The translations under genes and the position numbers were made by a program. DNA of 56,460 bases, counting the filler, from Asterionella formosa (lineage: Eukaryota): the NCBI GenBank assembly GCA_002256025.1. It is 6 parts of 6 records of this genome, joined end to end, with 100 filler letters (N's around TTAATTAATTAA, not from the genome) between each part and the next. Parts side by side here need not be neighbours in the genome. Positions count along the whole stretch, not along the records: positions 1 to 9,337 come from NKIB01010792.1; 5 more parts are not named here. The stretch is one strand, 5' to 3'. The notes below the pieces were generated by a model. It did no database searches, was not told the DNA's origin, and was given only the letters and a program-made list of their open reading frames with translations. Below are positions 1 to 48,785 of the stretch, piece by piece; positions within the stretch are counted from its first letter, which is position 1; every line of letters begins with the position of its first letter.

Positions 1-1514
1 AATCTACCTCAAGGAGTGATGAAATTTCTGACCTAGAAAAGAGAAATGTTTTGAAGCAACAGGCAAAGTTGGAACGAGAAATGAAGAAGTTGGACTCATC
101 GTACAATCCAACTAAAAATGTTAAATTTCCTCCAGACACTTCACTACCAAATGTGATTGAGGAGGAAGCTTCTTCGAATAAGGAAACTGAAGTAAATTTC
201 GTATTCAATGCAAGTCTTGCATCGGACCCAGGTTTACCAAATAGTTATGATGAGGCAATGATAAGACCTGATCGCAAAGAGTGGATGAAAGCTATAAAGA
301 AAGAATTTGAAAACTTCCAAGCAAGAGGAGTATGGAAAATAGTTAAGAGAAATGACGTGAACAAGAGAGCTCTTAAGACAAGATGGGTCTTCCGTATTAA
401 GGAGGACGTGATAACTGGAAAGACAGTATACAAGGCACGGTTGGTTGTAAAGGGATATGAACAGATCCCGGGAGTTGATTTTACTGAAACATTCGCTCCT
501 GTTGCAAGTGATGCTACAATAAAAACTGTTCTGGCTGTTACTTTGTACTACGGTTGGATAGCGGAAGCAATTGATGTTGAAGCAGCGTTTTTAAATGCTG
601 ACGTCGACGAAGACATTTATATTGAGCCCCCAGAAGGATTGACAGGGATCGATCAGAATATACATATCTGCAAATTAATTAAGGCTATGTATGGAATTGT
701 ACAAGCTCCAAGATGCTGGTCCAAGACATTTGCGAAATGCATCACCAGCAAGAAAGGTATAACGAAAAGCGAAATAGACCCAATGTTGTTTATCTACCGT
801 AACAACAATGGACAAATTGAAGGGCTGTTGGCAAACTACGTGGATGATGGAATTATTTGTGGTACCAGGAATGCAGTGGACTACATGAAAAATATGATCA
901 AGGAGGATTTTAATATCACGGAACAAGGTCCATTACAAAAACACATTGATATTAAGTTTCATCATGTCAAGAACATGATAGATGAGGGTGAGTTGCATAT
1001 TGTTTTTCTAAGATCAGAAAACAATCCAGCAGACATTTTGACGAAGAATGTCAAAGAGCAGATTTTTACAAGGTTATCTGGACCTGTGCTGAGTGGTACA
1101 ATTTTAGAACTTCTTGAACATGGCAACGAGGAGGATGTCAAGAATATAGCATCAATGACTATAATGAGTCACAAGGACTGTGGACTCGACTATAGTCCAA
1201 TGAGTCAAATGGTGCGTTCCCATGTCAAGAAGCTTGCTAACGAGATTGATGTCTTAGATCAATCAGAAGAAGGTTTACATCAACGAAAAGGGAACACGAA
1301 GAACAGGTTCTCGAAGTGTGATGAATGGGATTGAAACTTAGTTTTAGTTTAATCTTATAATTAAGAAACAGTGAGAATTGACAGAGTAAGGTCAATAGCG
1401 AAAACTAGCACGAAGGCTAGCAGCAGAAAGAAGATAACAATACTAGTGGTATAGCAGGTAAGTTCTACGTAAGAGGAACCCGTCAGACGGGAAGGAGTAC
1501 GAGACCTTTCAACA
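1..1514 (+). mobile_element. Ty1/copia (CoDi-like) LTR retrotransposon, 3' part, internally deleted
   Basis: ORF 51-1334 has copia RT motifs (WVFRIK, YKARLVVKGYEQIPGVDFTETFAPV, IDVEAAFLNA, KAMYGIVQAPR, YVDDG) fused directly to the RNase H tail (KHIDIKFHHVK...NPADILTK). A polypurine tract at ~1125-1135 is followed by the LTR. Cut by the window start. Confidence 0.95.
1136..1514 (+). repeat. 3' LTR of copia element, copy 1 (379 bp, TG...CA)
   Basis: Starts TGTCAAGA directly after AACGAGGAGGA and ends CTTTCAACA. Similarity to 21497-21877 stops exactly at this CA. Confidence 0.9.
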
Positions 1515-6051: not shown

Positions 6052-6438
6052 GGTGCTTCTAGCTTACCGGTAGTACCAGGTACGGAGTACTCCGAAGTAT
6101 GATGTTCTCGTATTGTACAAGTTAAAATAGATGGCGGGTGCATAACATACCATGTCGGTAAGCGAATGGAGAATCATAGGTGAATATAAAGATTGATGTA
6201 GAATGGGGATGTTGGACCAGCGGTACATATCCTTATACGACCACCCGAACCTGCAAGTTGCGGAAATTTTGCTTAAACTAAAAGTTTAGCTATCTTTATC
6301 CGATATTGAATTGTTAGTTTAAGCAAAATTACCATAACTAGCTGGTGGGGTACCAGGTACTGTACCGAAATCCTTAATAGCACGACCAGTAAAAAACTGC
6401 ATTGACACATGTTAAGGTTGCAAACACGGTATAACCCA

Positions 6439-7681
6439 AGTTTGTAGTAGAATCACTAGGGTTGTTATCCCTTCTCATTCCCAAGAATCATTTTTCAGCT
6501 TAATAAATATTCAAATTTTGCAATGGCAAATCATTTGGCAAAATATCCAAGACATATACCAATATACCAGTATGCAAAAGGGTCATTAAGAAAATCAATT
6601 CGTATTCAGCAATTTTTAGTCACCGTCAGCAAATTCTATTCTTACTCAGCAGATTCTATATGTAGTCTGCGAAATTTCTAATTGTTTTCCAAAACTAGAG
6701 ATGCTTTCTCAAATGGTTCATCAGTCAGCAAGTCCTACTAGTCATAGCTAGTATTCTGCAAAACTGAGACATGTTCAGTGACTGCATCTGCAAATCATCA
6801 TTGGTCAATAACAATAAATGTTTCCTAAATTAGTTAAAAGGAATATTTAAAATCAACAGCTGAGATATCTCACCCAGCAGGCATGAAAAAAATCATTGGG
6901 GGTGAGTTGAAACAGGATAGGATCGCATAAACTGGTGTGCATTACTGGAACTCCCTGGTGGCTGAGCATTATAGCTCCCATTTTGTATTCACTAAAGTAC
7001 ATTTACCGATAGCTGGTTTTACAAAACCTGTGCCACGAAGTGGTGATCATACCACAGACGATGTTAAAGAGTGAATTGATGACGTTTTCTATGTATTCAA
7101 ACGACTGTCCAGCGTCACATTATCAATTTCAGCAAAATGGCCAAAACTTGCTGGTACCAGCAGCAAGTTGCGGTAATTTTGCAATATCTAGTTCCATTTA
7201 CGACTTTGTGCCGGCAATACAACTGATTCCAATTCCAAATTGATAGATGTGTCTCTTCTTGATATCCGTTTAATAAACCAACCCGACCGACTTGTTGTTC
7301 CTATATCTATATTTAGCTTTAATCTGATTTAGCCTAAAATATTGAGACCAACCTGTTGTGATTATTCTTCCATTTGCTTCCGTTGGTTTTGCTTAAAATG
7401 GTGGAGAATGCAGGAATCGAACCCGCCACCACAGAAGGGTGAGCTAACCACTAAGCCATTCCCCAGTTTCTGACCAGATCCTATACACTGATGTCATACA
7501 GAGTTGATATATATTCCTACTTTGATCAATGACTGTATCTAAGCATATGGAAAAGGTGTATATTGGTGAATGTTCCATTTAGCAATGTACATTTATGTTT
7601 TACTTGCAAGAAATCTGTGTTTGACTTCTCTCACAATTTTTTTTAACCCTACCTTGAGCTAGTGATTCCAATGCAGAAACT
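6439..7681. mobile_element. Older, diverged non-autonomous TIR element related to 19107-20338
   Basis: 7465-7681 aligns by eye with 20116-20338 and is followed by TTAA (7682-7685). The left end AGTTTGTAGTAGAATCACTAG (6439-6459) is a degenerate inverse of the right end CTAGTGATTCCAATGCAGAAACT. Similar length (~1243 vs 1232 bp). No left TTAA is visible. Confidence 0.6.
7399..7464 (-). ncRNA. tRNA-Ala-like 66-nt unit lacking a normal anticodon arm (pseudo-tRNA or Pol III ncRNA)
   Basis: Minus strand reads GGGGAATGGCTTAGTGGTTAGCTCACCCTTCTGTGGTGGCGGGTTCGATTCCTGCATTCTCCACCA-TTTT. It has a 7-bp acceptor stem with G3:U70, discriminator A, CCA, a T-arm, A box TGGCTTAGTGG, B box GGTTCGATTCC and a downstream T-run. 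Confidence 0.75.
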
Positions 7682-8339
7682 TTAAAGTAGCAATTTTGCT
7701 TATTGTGACGTCATCATTTAAATGCTGCTGCCATCACAGTCACCTCTATAGTACGACTTACGCAATCATTCTGTAGCTAACTACTGAATACGCACTGGTA
7801 AACATATACCGGCTCTGGAATATAATTATTAAGCTGAAATAATGCGTTTCTTTGTACATATAAACCGCTGTAGTGTAGTTGCAACCGGCTGGAGAATCCT
7901 TCATCATCATGTCATCACAGCGTCGTTGACCATGATGAAAATAGCGAATATCTCGACGAAAAATGAGAACGATGCTTTCCGTTTTGATACATATATCAAA
8001 CACGACATAGATATTACAATCGTAAAAATAACTCTAATAGCACCTATACTGACAACGAAAATTGAAGTCGCCACTGGCACGTTTTTTCATCTAATTTAGA
8101 GATTTCAATCTTTAAACAATGATGCAACAAGTAGAAGCGACACTTTTACATTAGCTACTAAACAACAAACAATTAGACTATAACTACAGTATTTATATGA
8201 ATAATCGAAGCAAAAGATGTGAAATAAAGCTATAATCTACTGAGAATTGATTGATTGTGATGGGCAATTTGTATTAAGTCCTTGTCGAAGCCGACAAATG
8301 TGAAGCATTTGCTCCGGTATTTGATGTGTAGCCTCCCCC

Positions 8340-9337: not shown

Positions 9338-9437
9338 NNNNNNNNNNNNNNNNNNNNNNNNNNNNNNNNNNNNNNNNNNNNTTAATTAATTAANNNNNNN
9401 NNNNNNNNNNNNNNNNNNNNNNNNNNNNNNNNNNNNN
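9338..9437. other. Artificial contig linker
   Basis: N44-TTAATTAATTAA-N44, with stops in all six frames. Identical at five places. Confidence 0.99.
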
Positions 9438-18772: not shown

Positions 18773-18872
18773 NNNNNNNNNNNNNNNNNNNNNNNNNNNN
18801 NNNNNNNNNNNNNNNNTTAATTAATTAANNNNNNNNNNNNNNNNNNNNNNNNNNNNNNNNNNNNNNNNNNNN
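18773..18872. other. Artificial contig linker
   Basis: N44-TTAATTAATTAA-N44. Confidence 0.99.
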
Positions 18873-19106
18873 TGAAGGGATATGAACAGATCCCGGGAGT
18901 TGATTTTAATGAGACATTCGCTCCTGTTGCAAGTGATGCTACAATTAAGACCGTACCGGCTTTTACTTTGTACTGCGGTTGGATAGCGGAAGCAATCGAC
19001 GTTGAAGCAGCGTTTTTAAATGCTGACGTCGACGAAGACATTTATATTGAGCCCCAGAAGGATTGACAGGGATGGATCAGAATATACATATCTGCAAACT
19101 AATTAA

Positions 19107-20338
19107 GGTTGCTGCATTTGAACCCCTAGGCAAAAATTAAATTATTGCTTAGGGTTGCGAAAATTCCCTGGAATTAAGAATTTAATTAGCTATTTTTGAA
19201 TGACGTGATTCCATTTGAAATATTTGAATCAGTGGAAATTTGCGAATACGTACATAGATTCCTTGTCAAAATCGCTAAATATATATATAAACACTCTTAG
19301 TCGCTGAATGTATATTTATGCTAAAAATACGATCTACATGTATGCATGGACACTCTATACTCCCATTAACGATTTTATATGCTATTCATTGAATCCGTTC
19401 GACATATTCAAATCGTTTAATATATATATATAAATTTAGATTCTACATCGCTTCATGTGCATACACCAGTACTGCAATCTATACTCCGATCGACGACTAT
19501 GGGTCATGTATACGACCCGGCGGCTCGGCAAATATTTGAAAGTGCACTCAAGGAGCGTTACGCGTATGTCCAATGATGATCGTCTACTGGTACCTGGTAC
19601 CCTGGTACCCGTCGAGAATATAGAACCGGACTGTCAGTACACCGAAGAAAATATTACATGTTTATACAATGTGGCCGGCGTGGGTTTGCAAGACCTCGCA
19701 AACCAGGCCAATCAAACAGAGGAATGCAATTCACGTTCACCAATCATATTATATATGTGGAAGCGGGTACTTACAATGTAATTTTTTGGACAGCAGATTT
19801 TAGGACTAAAAATTCCGGCACACGACTACCATTCCGATGATGACGTTTCGACACATAATAATTCTGATTCCGATATTTTGGCGACCGTAGAAAAGGCCGA
19901 TTTTGTCGAGTTTTTGGACGACGATAGCGAATTGTTGGCTGGGTCTGACGGCGCTTTAGATACATCGGTAACTTTCAAATAGCATCAGTATATAACTTCT
20001 GGCGAGAAACTGCAGAAAGGAACTTTTTTTTTACTACCGGTATGCCAAATAAACAGATTTCCCCCGAAATTTCGAGTCTTTTTAGCATAGTTAAAAAACC
20101 GATGTTCCTTTCTGCAGTTTCTGACCAGATCCTATATACTGACGATATATAGAGTGAACCTACATCCCTACTTTGTCCGAAGACTGTATGTAAGCATATG
20201 GAAAGGGTGTGTATTCGTGAAAGCTCCGTTGAGCGTTATACATATTTGATTTATATGTGGGGAGTATGTGATTGATTAGTCTGACTCAATATTATTTTGT
20301 TAACCCTACCTCGAGCTAGGGGTTCAAATGCAGCAACC
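19107..20338. mobile_element. Non-autonomous TIR DNA transposon (1232 bp), TTAA target duplication, Kolobok-like termini
   Basis: Perfect 23-bp TIRs GGTTGCTGCATTTGAACCCCTAG (19107-19129 and 20316-20338), TTAA on both sides. The empty site AATTAAGGCTATG is present in copia copy 1 (~677-689). No transposase ORF. Confidence 0.95.
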
Positions 20339-21496
20339 TTAAGGCTATGCATGGAATTGTACAAGCTCCAAGATACTGGTCCAAGACATTTGCAAAGTGC
20401 GTCACCAGCAAGACAGGTATAACGAAAAGCGAAATAGACCCAATGTTGTTTATCTACCGTAACAACGATGGAAAAATTGAAGGGCTCTTGGCAAACTACG
20501 TGGATAATGGAATTATATGTGGTACCAGGAATGCAGTCGACTACATGAAAAATATGATCAAGGAGGATTTTAATATCACGGAACAAGGTTCCCTACGAAA
20601 ACACTAAGATGTGGAATATATGCGCAAGCATAACAAATTTGGAGAATACTGGCAAGTACAGCTGAAGAAATTTCGTACTGAAATGCTACTGGAATATGAG
20701 ATGCTTACCGGTAAGAAGATAAAGTCTTATGTGACACCAGGAGCACCAGGAGAAACATTAGGAGTCGTCAATAATGGAGAAACTATTATGGAGGCGGAAT
20801 ATCGCAAGATTGTTGGGAAATTATTATGATCTACTAAGAAAGAATCCCCGGACTGCGCCAATGCAGTACGTGAATTATCTTCGTATTTAAGCTGTCCAGG
20901 CGAAGAACACTGGGATGGAGTTTCACGAGTTATTGGATTCTTAACAAGCGAATTGGACAGAGTTCTCAAGATTCGAAAACCTAAAGAATTACGGGTTATT
21001 GCTTATGTTGATAGTGACTGGGCTGCTAATAAGGTAAGCCGGAAAAGTACTACAGGTTTTCTGGTTACCATTGGTGGTGCGTTGATCAGTTGGCAATCAA
21101 AGGGCCAGTCATCCCTTATGCTGTCAAGCACAGAAGCAGAATACGTTGCGATGTCGCAATGTGCTCAAGAGATTAAATTTATTGCAATGTTACTCAACAA
21201 AGTGACAGGTGGTAAAAATATCCTACCAAGCATTTACGTGAAGATAATACAGGTGCAATATTCACAGCGAAGAATCAACAACTTGGAACAAGAACAAAAC
21301 ACATTGATATTAAGTTTCATCATGTCAAGAACATGATACTAGATGAGGGTGAGTTGCATATTGTTTTTCTAAGATCAGGATTCAATCCTGCAGACATTTT
21401 GACGAAGAATGTCAAAGAGCAGATTTTTACAAGGTTATCTGGACCTGTACTGAATGGCACAATTTTAGAACTTCTTGAACATGGTAACGAGGCGGA

Positions 21497-28202: not shown

Positions 28203-28302
28203 NNNNNNNNNNNNNNNNNNNNNNNNNNNNNNNNNNNNNNNNNNNNTTAATTAATTAANNNNNNNNNNNNNNNNNNNNNNNNNNNNNNNNNNNNNNNNNN
28301 NN
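28203..28302. other. Artificial contig linker
   Basis: N44-TTAATTAATTAA-N44. Confidence 0.99.
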
Positions 28303-37630: not shown

Positions 37631-37730
37631 NNNNNNNNNNNNNNNNNNNNNNNNNNNNNNNNNNNNNNNNNNNNTTAATTAATTAANNNNNNNNNNNNNN
37701 NNNNNNNNNNNNNNNNNNNNNNNNNNNNNN
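37631..37730. other. Artificial contig linker
   Basis: N44-TTAATTAATTAA-N44. Confidence 0.99.
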
Positions 37731-47051: not shown

Positions 47052-47151
47052 NNNNNNNNNNNNNNNNNNNNNNNNNNNNNNNNNNNNNNNNNNNNTTAAT
47101 TAATTAANNNNNNNNNNNNNNNNNNNNNNNNNNNNNNNNNNNNNNNNNNNN
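47052..47151. other. Artificial contig linker
   Basis: N44-TTAATTAATTAA-N44. Confidence 0.99.
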
Positions 47152-48637: not shown

Positions 48638-48785
48638 GGGGAAACTCCGACCGCCTAGGAGGGCGGCACACTGCTGCTTGTAGGGTGGCAACCCACTTTT
48701 CCTGGCACACCTGGCAAGACCAGCCATGCGGGATGGTGAGGAGTGCAAAGGCAACGTGGCTGCCCAACCAACTGAGCCATTCCCC
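48638..48785 (-). ncRNA. Candidate Pol III or SINE-like RNA with a tRNA-derived head
   Basis: Starts GGGGAATGGCTCAGTTGGTT (same head as at 7464, with A box). GC-rich with several hairpins, and TTCCCC at 48643-48638 could pair with the 5' end. No B box found; 3' end uncertain. Confidence 0.35.

Follow-up and report, generated by a model that had tools for sequence, protein, structure and literature searches.

The DNA analysed here, called the window, is a stretch of 56,460 nucleotides (nt), filler included, from the diatom Asterionella formosa (GenBank assembly GCA_002256025.1), and consists of six pieces of ~9.3 kb separated by linkers of the form N44-TTAATTAATTAA-N44 (9338-9437, 18773-18872, 28203-28302, 37631-37730 and 47052-47151); open reading frames (ORFs) touching these artificial linkers are artefacts. 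It is eukaryotic nuclear DNA, with sequences for PRMT5, DOT1, a UAA transporter and a Copia reverse transcriptase (RT); the named relatives of its PRMT5 are all from diatoms (45-53% identity), and metagenome proteins reach up to 93%. In piece 1, the minus strand of 7464..7399 holds a 66-nt unit resembling a transfer RNA (tRNA), which adjoins the remnant of a transposon with terminal inverted repeats (TIRs) and which an initial annotation had taken for a tRNA-Ala mimic, possibly functional, carried by that transposon. We consider the unit to be, probably, the 5′ tRNA-related head of a multi-copy family of retroposons of this diatom lineage that resemble short interspersed elements (SINEs), present here as a head-only relic.

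The features ascribed to the unit can all be read in the sequence. The acceptor stem, GGGGAAT/ATTCTCC, is paired at 7/7 positions, G3:U70 included, and the 3′ end consists of the discriminator A, then CCA, then TTTT at 7398..7395 (minus strand), two T's of this run belonging to the TTAA at 7393-7396. The T-arm reads GCGGG/TTCGATT/CCTGC, and matches to the consensus sequences of the A box (TRGCNNAGTGG) and the B box (GGTTCGANTCC) lie at unit positions 7 and 42, respectively. Without CCA the unit measures 63 nt, ~10 nt below the length of a tRNA, as had been noted. The normal anticodon arm is indeed gone, but what replaces it is not unstructured: the D-arm and the T-arm are separated by 16 nt that fold into a small hairpin, CACC/CTTCTGT/GGTG. 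The feature at 7399..7464 (minus strand) thus has 7 bp in its acceptor stem, 3-4 bp in its D stem, 4 bp in the hairpin that stands where the anticodon arm would be and 5 bp in its T stem, and it ends in ACCA. The RNAfold structure (-22.9 kcal/mol) has a four-way junction in which no linker bases occur; as a single-sequence fold it was not significant (z = -1.44). The 3′ part of the unit (32 nt) occurred once in the window vs 0 times in 100 shuffles; together with the features just described, this indicates that the observation is real.

Standard detectors made no call on the unit: ARAGORN with default settings found 0 genes in the whole window, and Rfam gave no match in the window at the gathering threshold. 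The best sub-threshold Rfam match of the unit was to transfer-messenger RNA (tmRNA), and the score on the Rfam tRNA model was lower than that. The tmRNA match was rejected, with 21 bits vs a gathering value of 47, only the acceptor stem and T-arm aligned and ~320 model positions skipped. In its -mt mode, ARAGORN called exactly 7399-7464 as mtRNA(tct); a mitochondrial-type tRNA was rejected on the nuclear context, a loop that varies among relatives and the presence of the same family as the head of a retroposon. At a relaxed threshold, ARAGORN also proposed a tRNA-Ala(agc) at 7399-7471, which was discarded for its badly paired acceptor stem. No standard detector called the unit as a canonical tRNA gene, and it has no 5-bp anticodon stem and 7-nt loop with a conserved anticodon. 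The unit resembles alanine minihelices, and likewise the tRNA-like part of tmRNA, in its G3:U70 helix stacked on a T-arm, its A73 and ACCA, and its lack of an anticodon; unlike tmRNA, it is a nuclear eukaryotic repeat without a tag frame and pseudoknots. As judged from its features, the description of the unit as a predicted non-decoding, tRNA-Ala-like sequence with an apparently intact internal promoter of the RNA polymerase III (Pol III) type holds.

Contigs of four public runs from four studies (X1, X2, X4 and X10) were placed on positions 6300-7800 at a likeness of at least 80%. In X1, the summed depth, which by the method's own caveat is not a copy number, was ~279,000 and ~247,000 in the two bins of the unit vs ~1,000 in single-copy flanking bins, and the contrast between unit and flanks was similar in X2, X4 and X10. 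A match to the unit that breaks off shortly before 7400 was seen in 45 (X1), 34 (X2), 14 (X4) and 5 (X10) contigs, and their consensus, on the strand of the unit, reads ACC-TGTCTTTTTCATGTAGTCCC... At the opposite border, unrelated AT-rich DNA lay beyond the first base of the unit, at 7464 in 25 (X1), 37 (X2) and 19 (X4) contigs and at 7465 in 3 contigs of X10. A variant head, with a hairpin one base shorter, was found in 30 X1 contigs. The unit is highly repeated and has two repeat borders of its own, 7400 and 7464, and in this organism it usually runs on into another downstream sequence.

Relatives of the unit were retrieved by a metagenome scan with its exact 3′ 22-mer, which yielded six loci (L001 to L006); the same 22-mer had 0 matches in a collection of prokaryotic genomes and 0 in IMG/VR. 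L004 was rejected as a relative, the 22-mer standing there in an unrelated context, and the others contain either a full short head (L001, L002, L003 and L005) or a 5′-truncated one (L006). Four of them (L002, L003, L005 and L006) share a T-rich linker, a body of ~170 nt and an A/T-rich tail, after which the similarity stops, and full elements measure ~245-255 nt. The family linker reads ACC-TGTC-TTTTT, a run of five or six T's (T5-T6) being present in L002, L003 and L006 and absent in L001 and L005. The loose-end consensus of the X1 contigs agrees with the start of the body of these relatives. The upstream flanks of L001, L003 and L005 are mutually different, and target-site duplications, of 11-14 nt, are clear in 2/3 assessable copies: 11/12 nt in L005, where the target tandem array continues beyond the duplication, and ~13/14 nt in L001, the duplication of L003 being weak. 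At L005:331-518, the SINE was inserted at the end of an array of 51-53-nt tandem repeats. This succession of head, linker, body and tail, with duplications, is therefore the anatomy of a tRNA-derived SINE.

The head of L001, although 94% identical to the unit, stands on a different body. A comparison of L001:1230-1475 with L002:3-232 displays one short head on two unrelated bodies; heads and bodies therefore recombine as modules.

Rodent ID/BC1 is a SINE family derived from tRNA-Ala. Like tRNA-derived SINEs, the present family has a 5′ tRNA-related head with A and B boxes, a repeat border at the first base of the head, a tRNA-unrelated body and tail in the relatives, duplications of variable length, 5′-truncated copies, a high copy number, and heads recombined with different bodies (L001 vs the L002 type). 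Unlike usual SINEs, its head keeps a fully paired acceptor stem and T-arm and has a clean loss of ~8 nt in the anticodon arm, most of its copies carry T5-T6 directly after the head, and the window copy is head-only.

The heads of two relatives could be compared with the Rfam tRNA model end to end, with scores of 30.0 bits for L002 (gathering value 29) and 28.3 bits for L003. Their acceptor stem, D-arm, variable region and T-arm are in register with the model, whereas 13 positions of the anticodon arm are replaced by 5 (a gap of ~8 nt), and the L002 head is also one base short at the acceptor/D junction. ARAGORN found 0 tRNA genes in the six metagenome loci. The hairpin loops of five heads (CTTCTGT, CACTGT, CATG, CATG and AAAG) differ, and hence there is no conserved anticodon; G3:U70 and A73 are present in 5/5 heads. 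The head probably derives from a tRNA whose acceptor stem was of the alanine type (G3:U70, A73). From this tRNA, ~8 nt in the anticodon stem-loop and a single nt at positions 8/9 would have been lost, and the acceptor stem, D-arm, T-arm and A and B boxes retained; one deletion of ~8 nt in an alanine-type tRNA would be enough to explain the shape of the head.

Covariation in the stems, which the initial annotation had named as a test, was not found. Among the five heads, 94% of cells pair with 0 compensatory pairs, and 207/500 shuffles reach the observed pairing, in a test limited by the 3′ half of the heads being fixed by the search pattern. RNAalifold gave the same fold as that drawn by hand, with a covariation term of +0.92. 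The fold of the head thus appears to be conserved by descent, and no sign of selection was seen in these five sequences.

A decayed ordinary tRNA-Ala gene that happened to lie here, and beside which the TTAA element landed, would likewise have such an acceptor stem and T-arm and differ from the tRNA model by a single deletion. However, the runs contain this deleted form in many different contexts, it is present in five metagenome loci as well, and the borders of the unit are repeat borders, and we regard such a decayed gene as hardly credible.

The DNA beyond the first base of the unit was compared with a reference TTAA element, element 2, which occupies 19103..20342 in piece 3 (1,240 bp) and has perfect 27-nt TIRs ending in TTAA. 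Its right arm (20107-20342) is 76% identical to 7456-7685 over 236 nt, and the homology ends at the first base of the unit, so that the adjacency originally reported is correct. The remnant of the right arm of a TTAA/TIR element thus spans 7465..7681 (217 nt), with a degenerate TIR at 7659-7681; over 7659-7685, which includes the TTAA at 7682-7685, the TIR match has 5 mismatches in 27. No tRNA-like unit was found at the corresponding point in element 2, nor in one X10 contig across the same point.

The unit and the arm lie together in a high-copy repeat, repeat B (7161..7392, resuming at 7686 to ~7730), covered by many contig pieces over 7161/7224-7396 at 80-90% identity. The block at 7397-7681 (285 nt) starts with AA, followed by the unit and then by the 217-nt arm including the TIR, and is flanked by TTAA on the left (7393..7396) and on the right (7682..7685, seen in the sequence and in run contigs). 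Paralogous contigs in which the block is absent read ...TTTTGC-TTAA-AGTAGC..., and contig joints skip it (7380/7396->7682, 7377->7695 and 7357->7704). Since the paralogues of repeat B cross a single TTAA, the block is an insertion.

The outer end of the unit was also aligned with three versions of the TIR, giving p = 0.50, 0.40 and 0.20 (local alignment, 2,000 shuffles), and the unit as a surrogate left TIR was rejected, the alignment being no better than shuffles. As the outer left end is unlike a TIR, the block has one transposon end only. A 1.25-kb element around the unit, element 1, is not supported either: its left TIR candidate at 6443-6459 (17 nt, 82% complementary) is at single-copy depth, and the bin of the right TIR is ~27x higher. 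Between element 1 and element 2, no alignment of the interiors was obtained. Of the proposed location inside a TIR transposon, the right arm with its TIR is therefore present, but the left TIR at 6443-6459 is not borne out.

The termini of piggyBac are CCC/GGG, and the TIR of element 2 does not start in this way; in addition, unlike piggyBac, the block has one recognisable end. Element 2 shares with piggyBac-type elements TIRs that end in TTAA (perfect, 27 nt), and the block likewise stands between TTAA and TTAA where the paralogues have a single TTAA. A search with Pfam found no transposase domain, of the piggyBac type or otherwise, in 16 long ORFs of the window. PiggyBac is listed among the transposons of Phaeodactylum tricornutum (PMC5859163).

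Three further observations concern these elements. The 50-nt arm bin at 7524-7574 had a summed depth of ~1.35 million in X1, ~10x that of its neighbours; this segment must thus be present in many more contexts than the remainder of the arm. Within element 2 lies an inverted repeat (19979-20032/20095-20148; 54 nt, 80% complementary, 62-nt spacer), the right arm of which begins ~20 nt before the homology with the unit-bearing copy starts. A 10-mer, CTAGGGGTTC, is common to the L002 body (L002:84-93) and the right TIR of element 2 (window 20316-20325), which may be chance.

The initial annotation had proposed two ways in which the unit could serve the TIR element: it might yield a non-decoding Pol III RNA that can be charged, or it might form a chromatin barrier bound by transcription factor IIIC (TFIIIC). 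In favour of such a role, both promoter boxes, A and B, agree with the consensus, G3:U70 lies in a 7-bp helix with A73, TTTT follows directly, and the unit is better kept than the arm. On the other hand, the two other arms that cross the same point (element 2 and the X10 contig) are without the unit, which heads a separate retroposon family and so is not cargo of the TTAA element; the composite has one recognisable transposon end, its outer end comparing with TIRs at p = 0.2-0.5; the five heads have 0 compensatory changes; and CCA and TTTT are specific to the junction. A service of this kind to the element would accordingly seem very improbable. The promoter had been called intact together with the terminator, and of these the A and B boxes do match, but TTTT, like CCA, belongs to this junction. 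In addition, the intact state of the unit amid decay had been taken as a sign of function, yet a younger copy of a high-copy family would explain it with no need for selection. The unit is probably younger than the arm, because it is 94% identical to the L001 head, as against 76% for the arm and element 2. The initial annotation had set its proposal against a single-copy unit that other family members lack and that one simple deletion from a tRNA-Ala gene explains; other TTAA arms are indeed without the unit and one deletion explains its shape, but the unit is multi-copy.

With the unit considered as the head of a SINE-like element, the window copy can be placed in the family. A profile of the full element matched the window at 7463-7398 (E = 1.9e-13), over model positions 2-67 only, and a profile search found no SINE body anywhere in the window. 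No target-site duplication of this copy was found within 6901-7465. At its 3′ end, it reads ACC-A-TTTT where the family has ACC-TGTC-TTTTT. The family already encodes ACC, and therefore CCA needs only one chance base; to judge from these junctions, the genomic CCA and the TTTT terminator are most likely by-products of the junction.

We propose the following history. A TTAA-specific TIR element would first have inserted into a TTAA site of repeat B, and a SINE copy would then have inserted into that element; the 11-14-nt duplications of the family point to target-primed reverse transcription by the enzyme of a long interspersed element (LINE) as the probable mode of SINE insertion. Subsequently, the part from the left end of the element through the SINE body may have been lost, the likeliest cause being a one-sided deletion that began where the transposase had cut the element's left end, and the remainder would be TTAA-AA-[head]-[217-nt right arm]-TTAA. 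The missing duplicate of the arm target fits a one-sided deletion, and does not prove that a deletion took place. The window copy probably has no dedicated function; at most, its intact A and B boxes might still attract TFIIIC and Pol III, for a predicted transcript of ~66-70 nt.

Several points weigh against the interpretation as a SINE head. In this organism, the body is represented only by a 30-nt loose-end consensus with an agreement of 0.6-0.7, and the run contigs are metagenomic and placed at a likeness of at least 80%, so that other organisms may contribute. The relatives known as sequence are only five, all metagenomic and chosen by the exact 3′ 22-mer. No duplicate of the arm target was found on the left side of the unit, and the insertion of a SINE into the arm is itself inferred. 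The family is without a known LINE partner and no simple poly(A) tail was seen, in which it is unlike SINEs. T5-T6 lies directly after the head in L002, L003, L006 and the X1 consensus, and a Pol III stop is therefore expected before the body, a poor fit to a classical SINE. Finally, the last base of the tRNA-like domain, with CCA complete, is precisely where the window copy stops, and a random deletion breakpoint would rarely fall there.

The exact end point is the starting point for another explanation, in which the head and its T-run form a self-contained Pol III gene and the unit is a retro-copy of the mature RNA of the head (~65 nt, trimmed like a tRNA, with CCA added), the complementary DNA (cDNA) having been captured at a break at the left end of the TTAA element. 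CCA-ended retro-pseudogenes of tRNAs are a known class in mammals. Both ends of the unit match such a mature RNA exactly (G1 at 7464 and CCA at 7399), the family copies in the genome read ACC-T and not ACC-A, and T5-T6 follows right after the head in most copies. However, only one extra A is needed, for which the chance in AT-rich DNA is ~1 in 3-4; G1 is the 5′ border of every ordinary family copy too; and no flanking target-site duplication was found (6901-7465). We therefore regard a retro-copy as unlikely, while giving it some weight.

In a further version, which we think a shade less likely again, the head may be a self-contained Pol III mini-gene, a mini-tRNA of alanine-type acceptor and T-arm terminated by its own T5-T6, whose RNA would be processed like a tRNA, CCA-tailed and perhaps charged by alanyl-tRNA synthetase, the window copy being reverse-transcribed mature RNA captured at a break made by the transposase. 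Both the oddity of T5-T6 and the exact CCA end would be explained by such a mini-gene. If this were true, the window copy would preserve in the genome the trace of a SINE head that matured as a tRNA does.

Dispersed tRNA-like units are not confined to SINEs. In PMC10886601, Helenus/TRIMp3 is described as having a tRNA-like sequence in the long terminal repeats (LTRs) of miniature LTR retrotransposons, and tRNA-like Pol III units in the LTRs of TRIMs (terminal-repeat retrotransposons in miniature) have been reported from fungi, animals and plants. Like those units, the present one is a dispersed tRNA-like Pol III unit in a mobile element, inflating tRNA-like counts. The family might consist of solo LTRs of a non-autonomous LTR retrotransposon of the Helenus/TRIMp3 type. 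Consistent with this, a conserved terminator-like T-run after the small-RNA-like part is reported for Cassandra LTRs (PMC10886601), a T precedes 4/5 heads, so that the element could start with TG, and a Copia RT is present in the window. However, within 700-950 nt downstream in five loci we found no second direct-orientation copy of the head or body, and no second LTR, primer-binding site (PBS) or polypurine tract (PPT) arrangement; unlike Helenus/TRIMp3, the family in these five loci is without paired LTRs, PBS and PPT, and its duplications are 11-14 nt instead of the 4-5 bp reported there (PMC10886601). In addition, the 5′-truncated L006 fits target-primed reverse transcription. Solo LTRs consequently appear decidedly improbable, and we retain the SINE-like head as the probable identity of the unit.

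Some other features of the window were recorded. An open-ended ORF at 3-1334 (plus strand), at the start of piece 1, encodes a Copia-type reverse transcriptase (RVT_2, E = 1.6e-46). A palindromic element of ~98 bp at 6249-6346, resembling a miniature inverted-repeat transposable element (MITE), has arms that are 82% complementary, and one arm occurs again at 7157-7182. Its bin had ~100x single-copy depth in X1, and contigs join 7181 to 6301 via a loop of ~29 nt; these joints therefore identify a short hairpin repeat family. At 48766-48785 (minus strand), an 18/20 match to the start of the SINE head follows an AT-rich flank and then diverges; this stretch lacks a B box, matched nothing in Rfam and is not repeated in the window, and could be either chance or the decayed head of another family.

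SINEs in diatoms are barely documented. PMC5859163 gives 13 copies of a 'putative SINE' in P. tricornutum, called there the first in a diatom, and among the papers listed by literature searches, none described the family reported here, as judged by titles and the openings of abstracts. At this locus, the unit is an ordinary SINE-like relic beside a transposon remnant, and a special function is unsupported. More generally, tidy tRNA-like units in diatom genomes may be heads of retroposons that can be mistaken for unusual tRNA genes or tmRNA-like genes, and libraries of diatom repeats would gain from a family that combines a high copy number with clear duplications and a well-preserved head of the alanine type.

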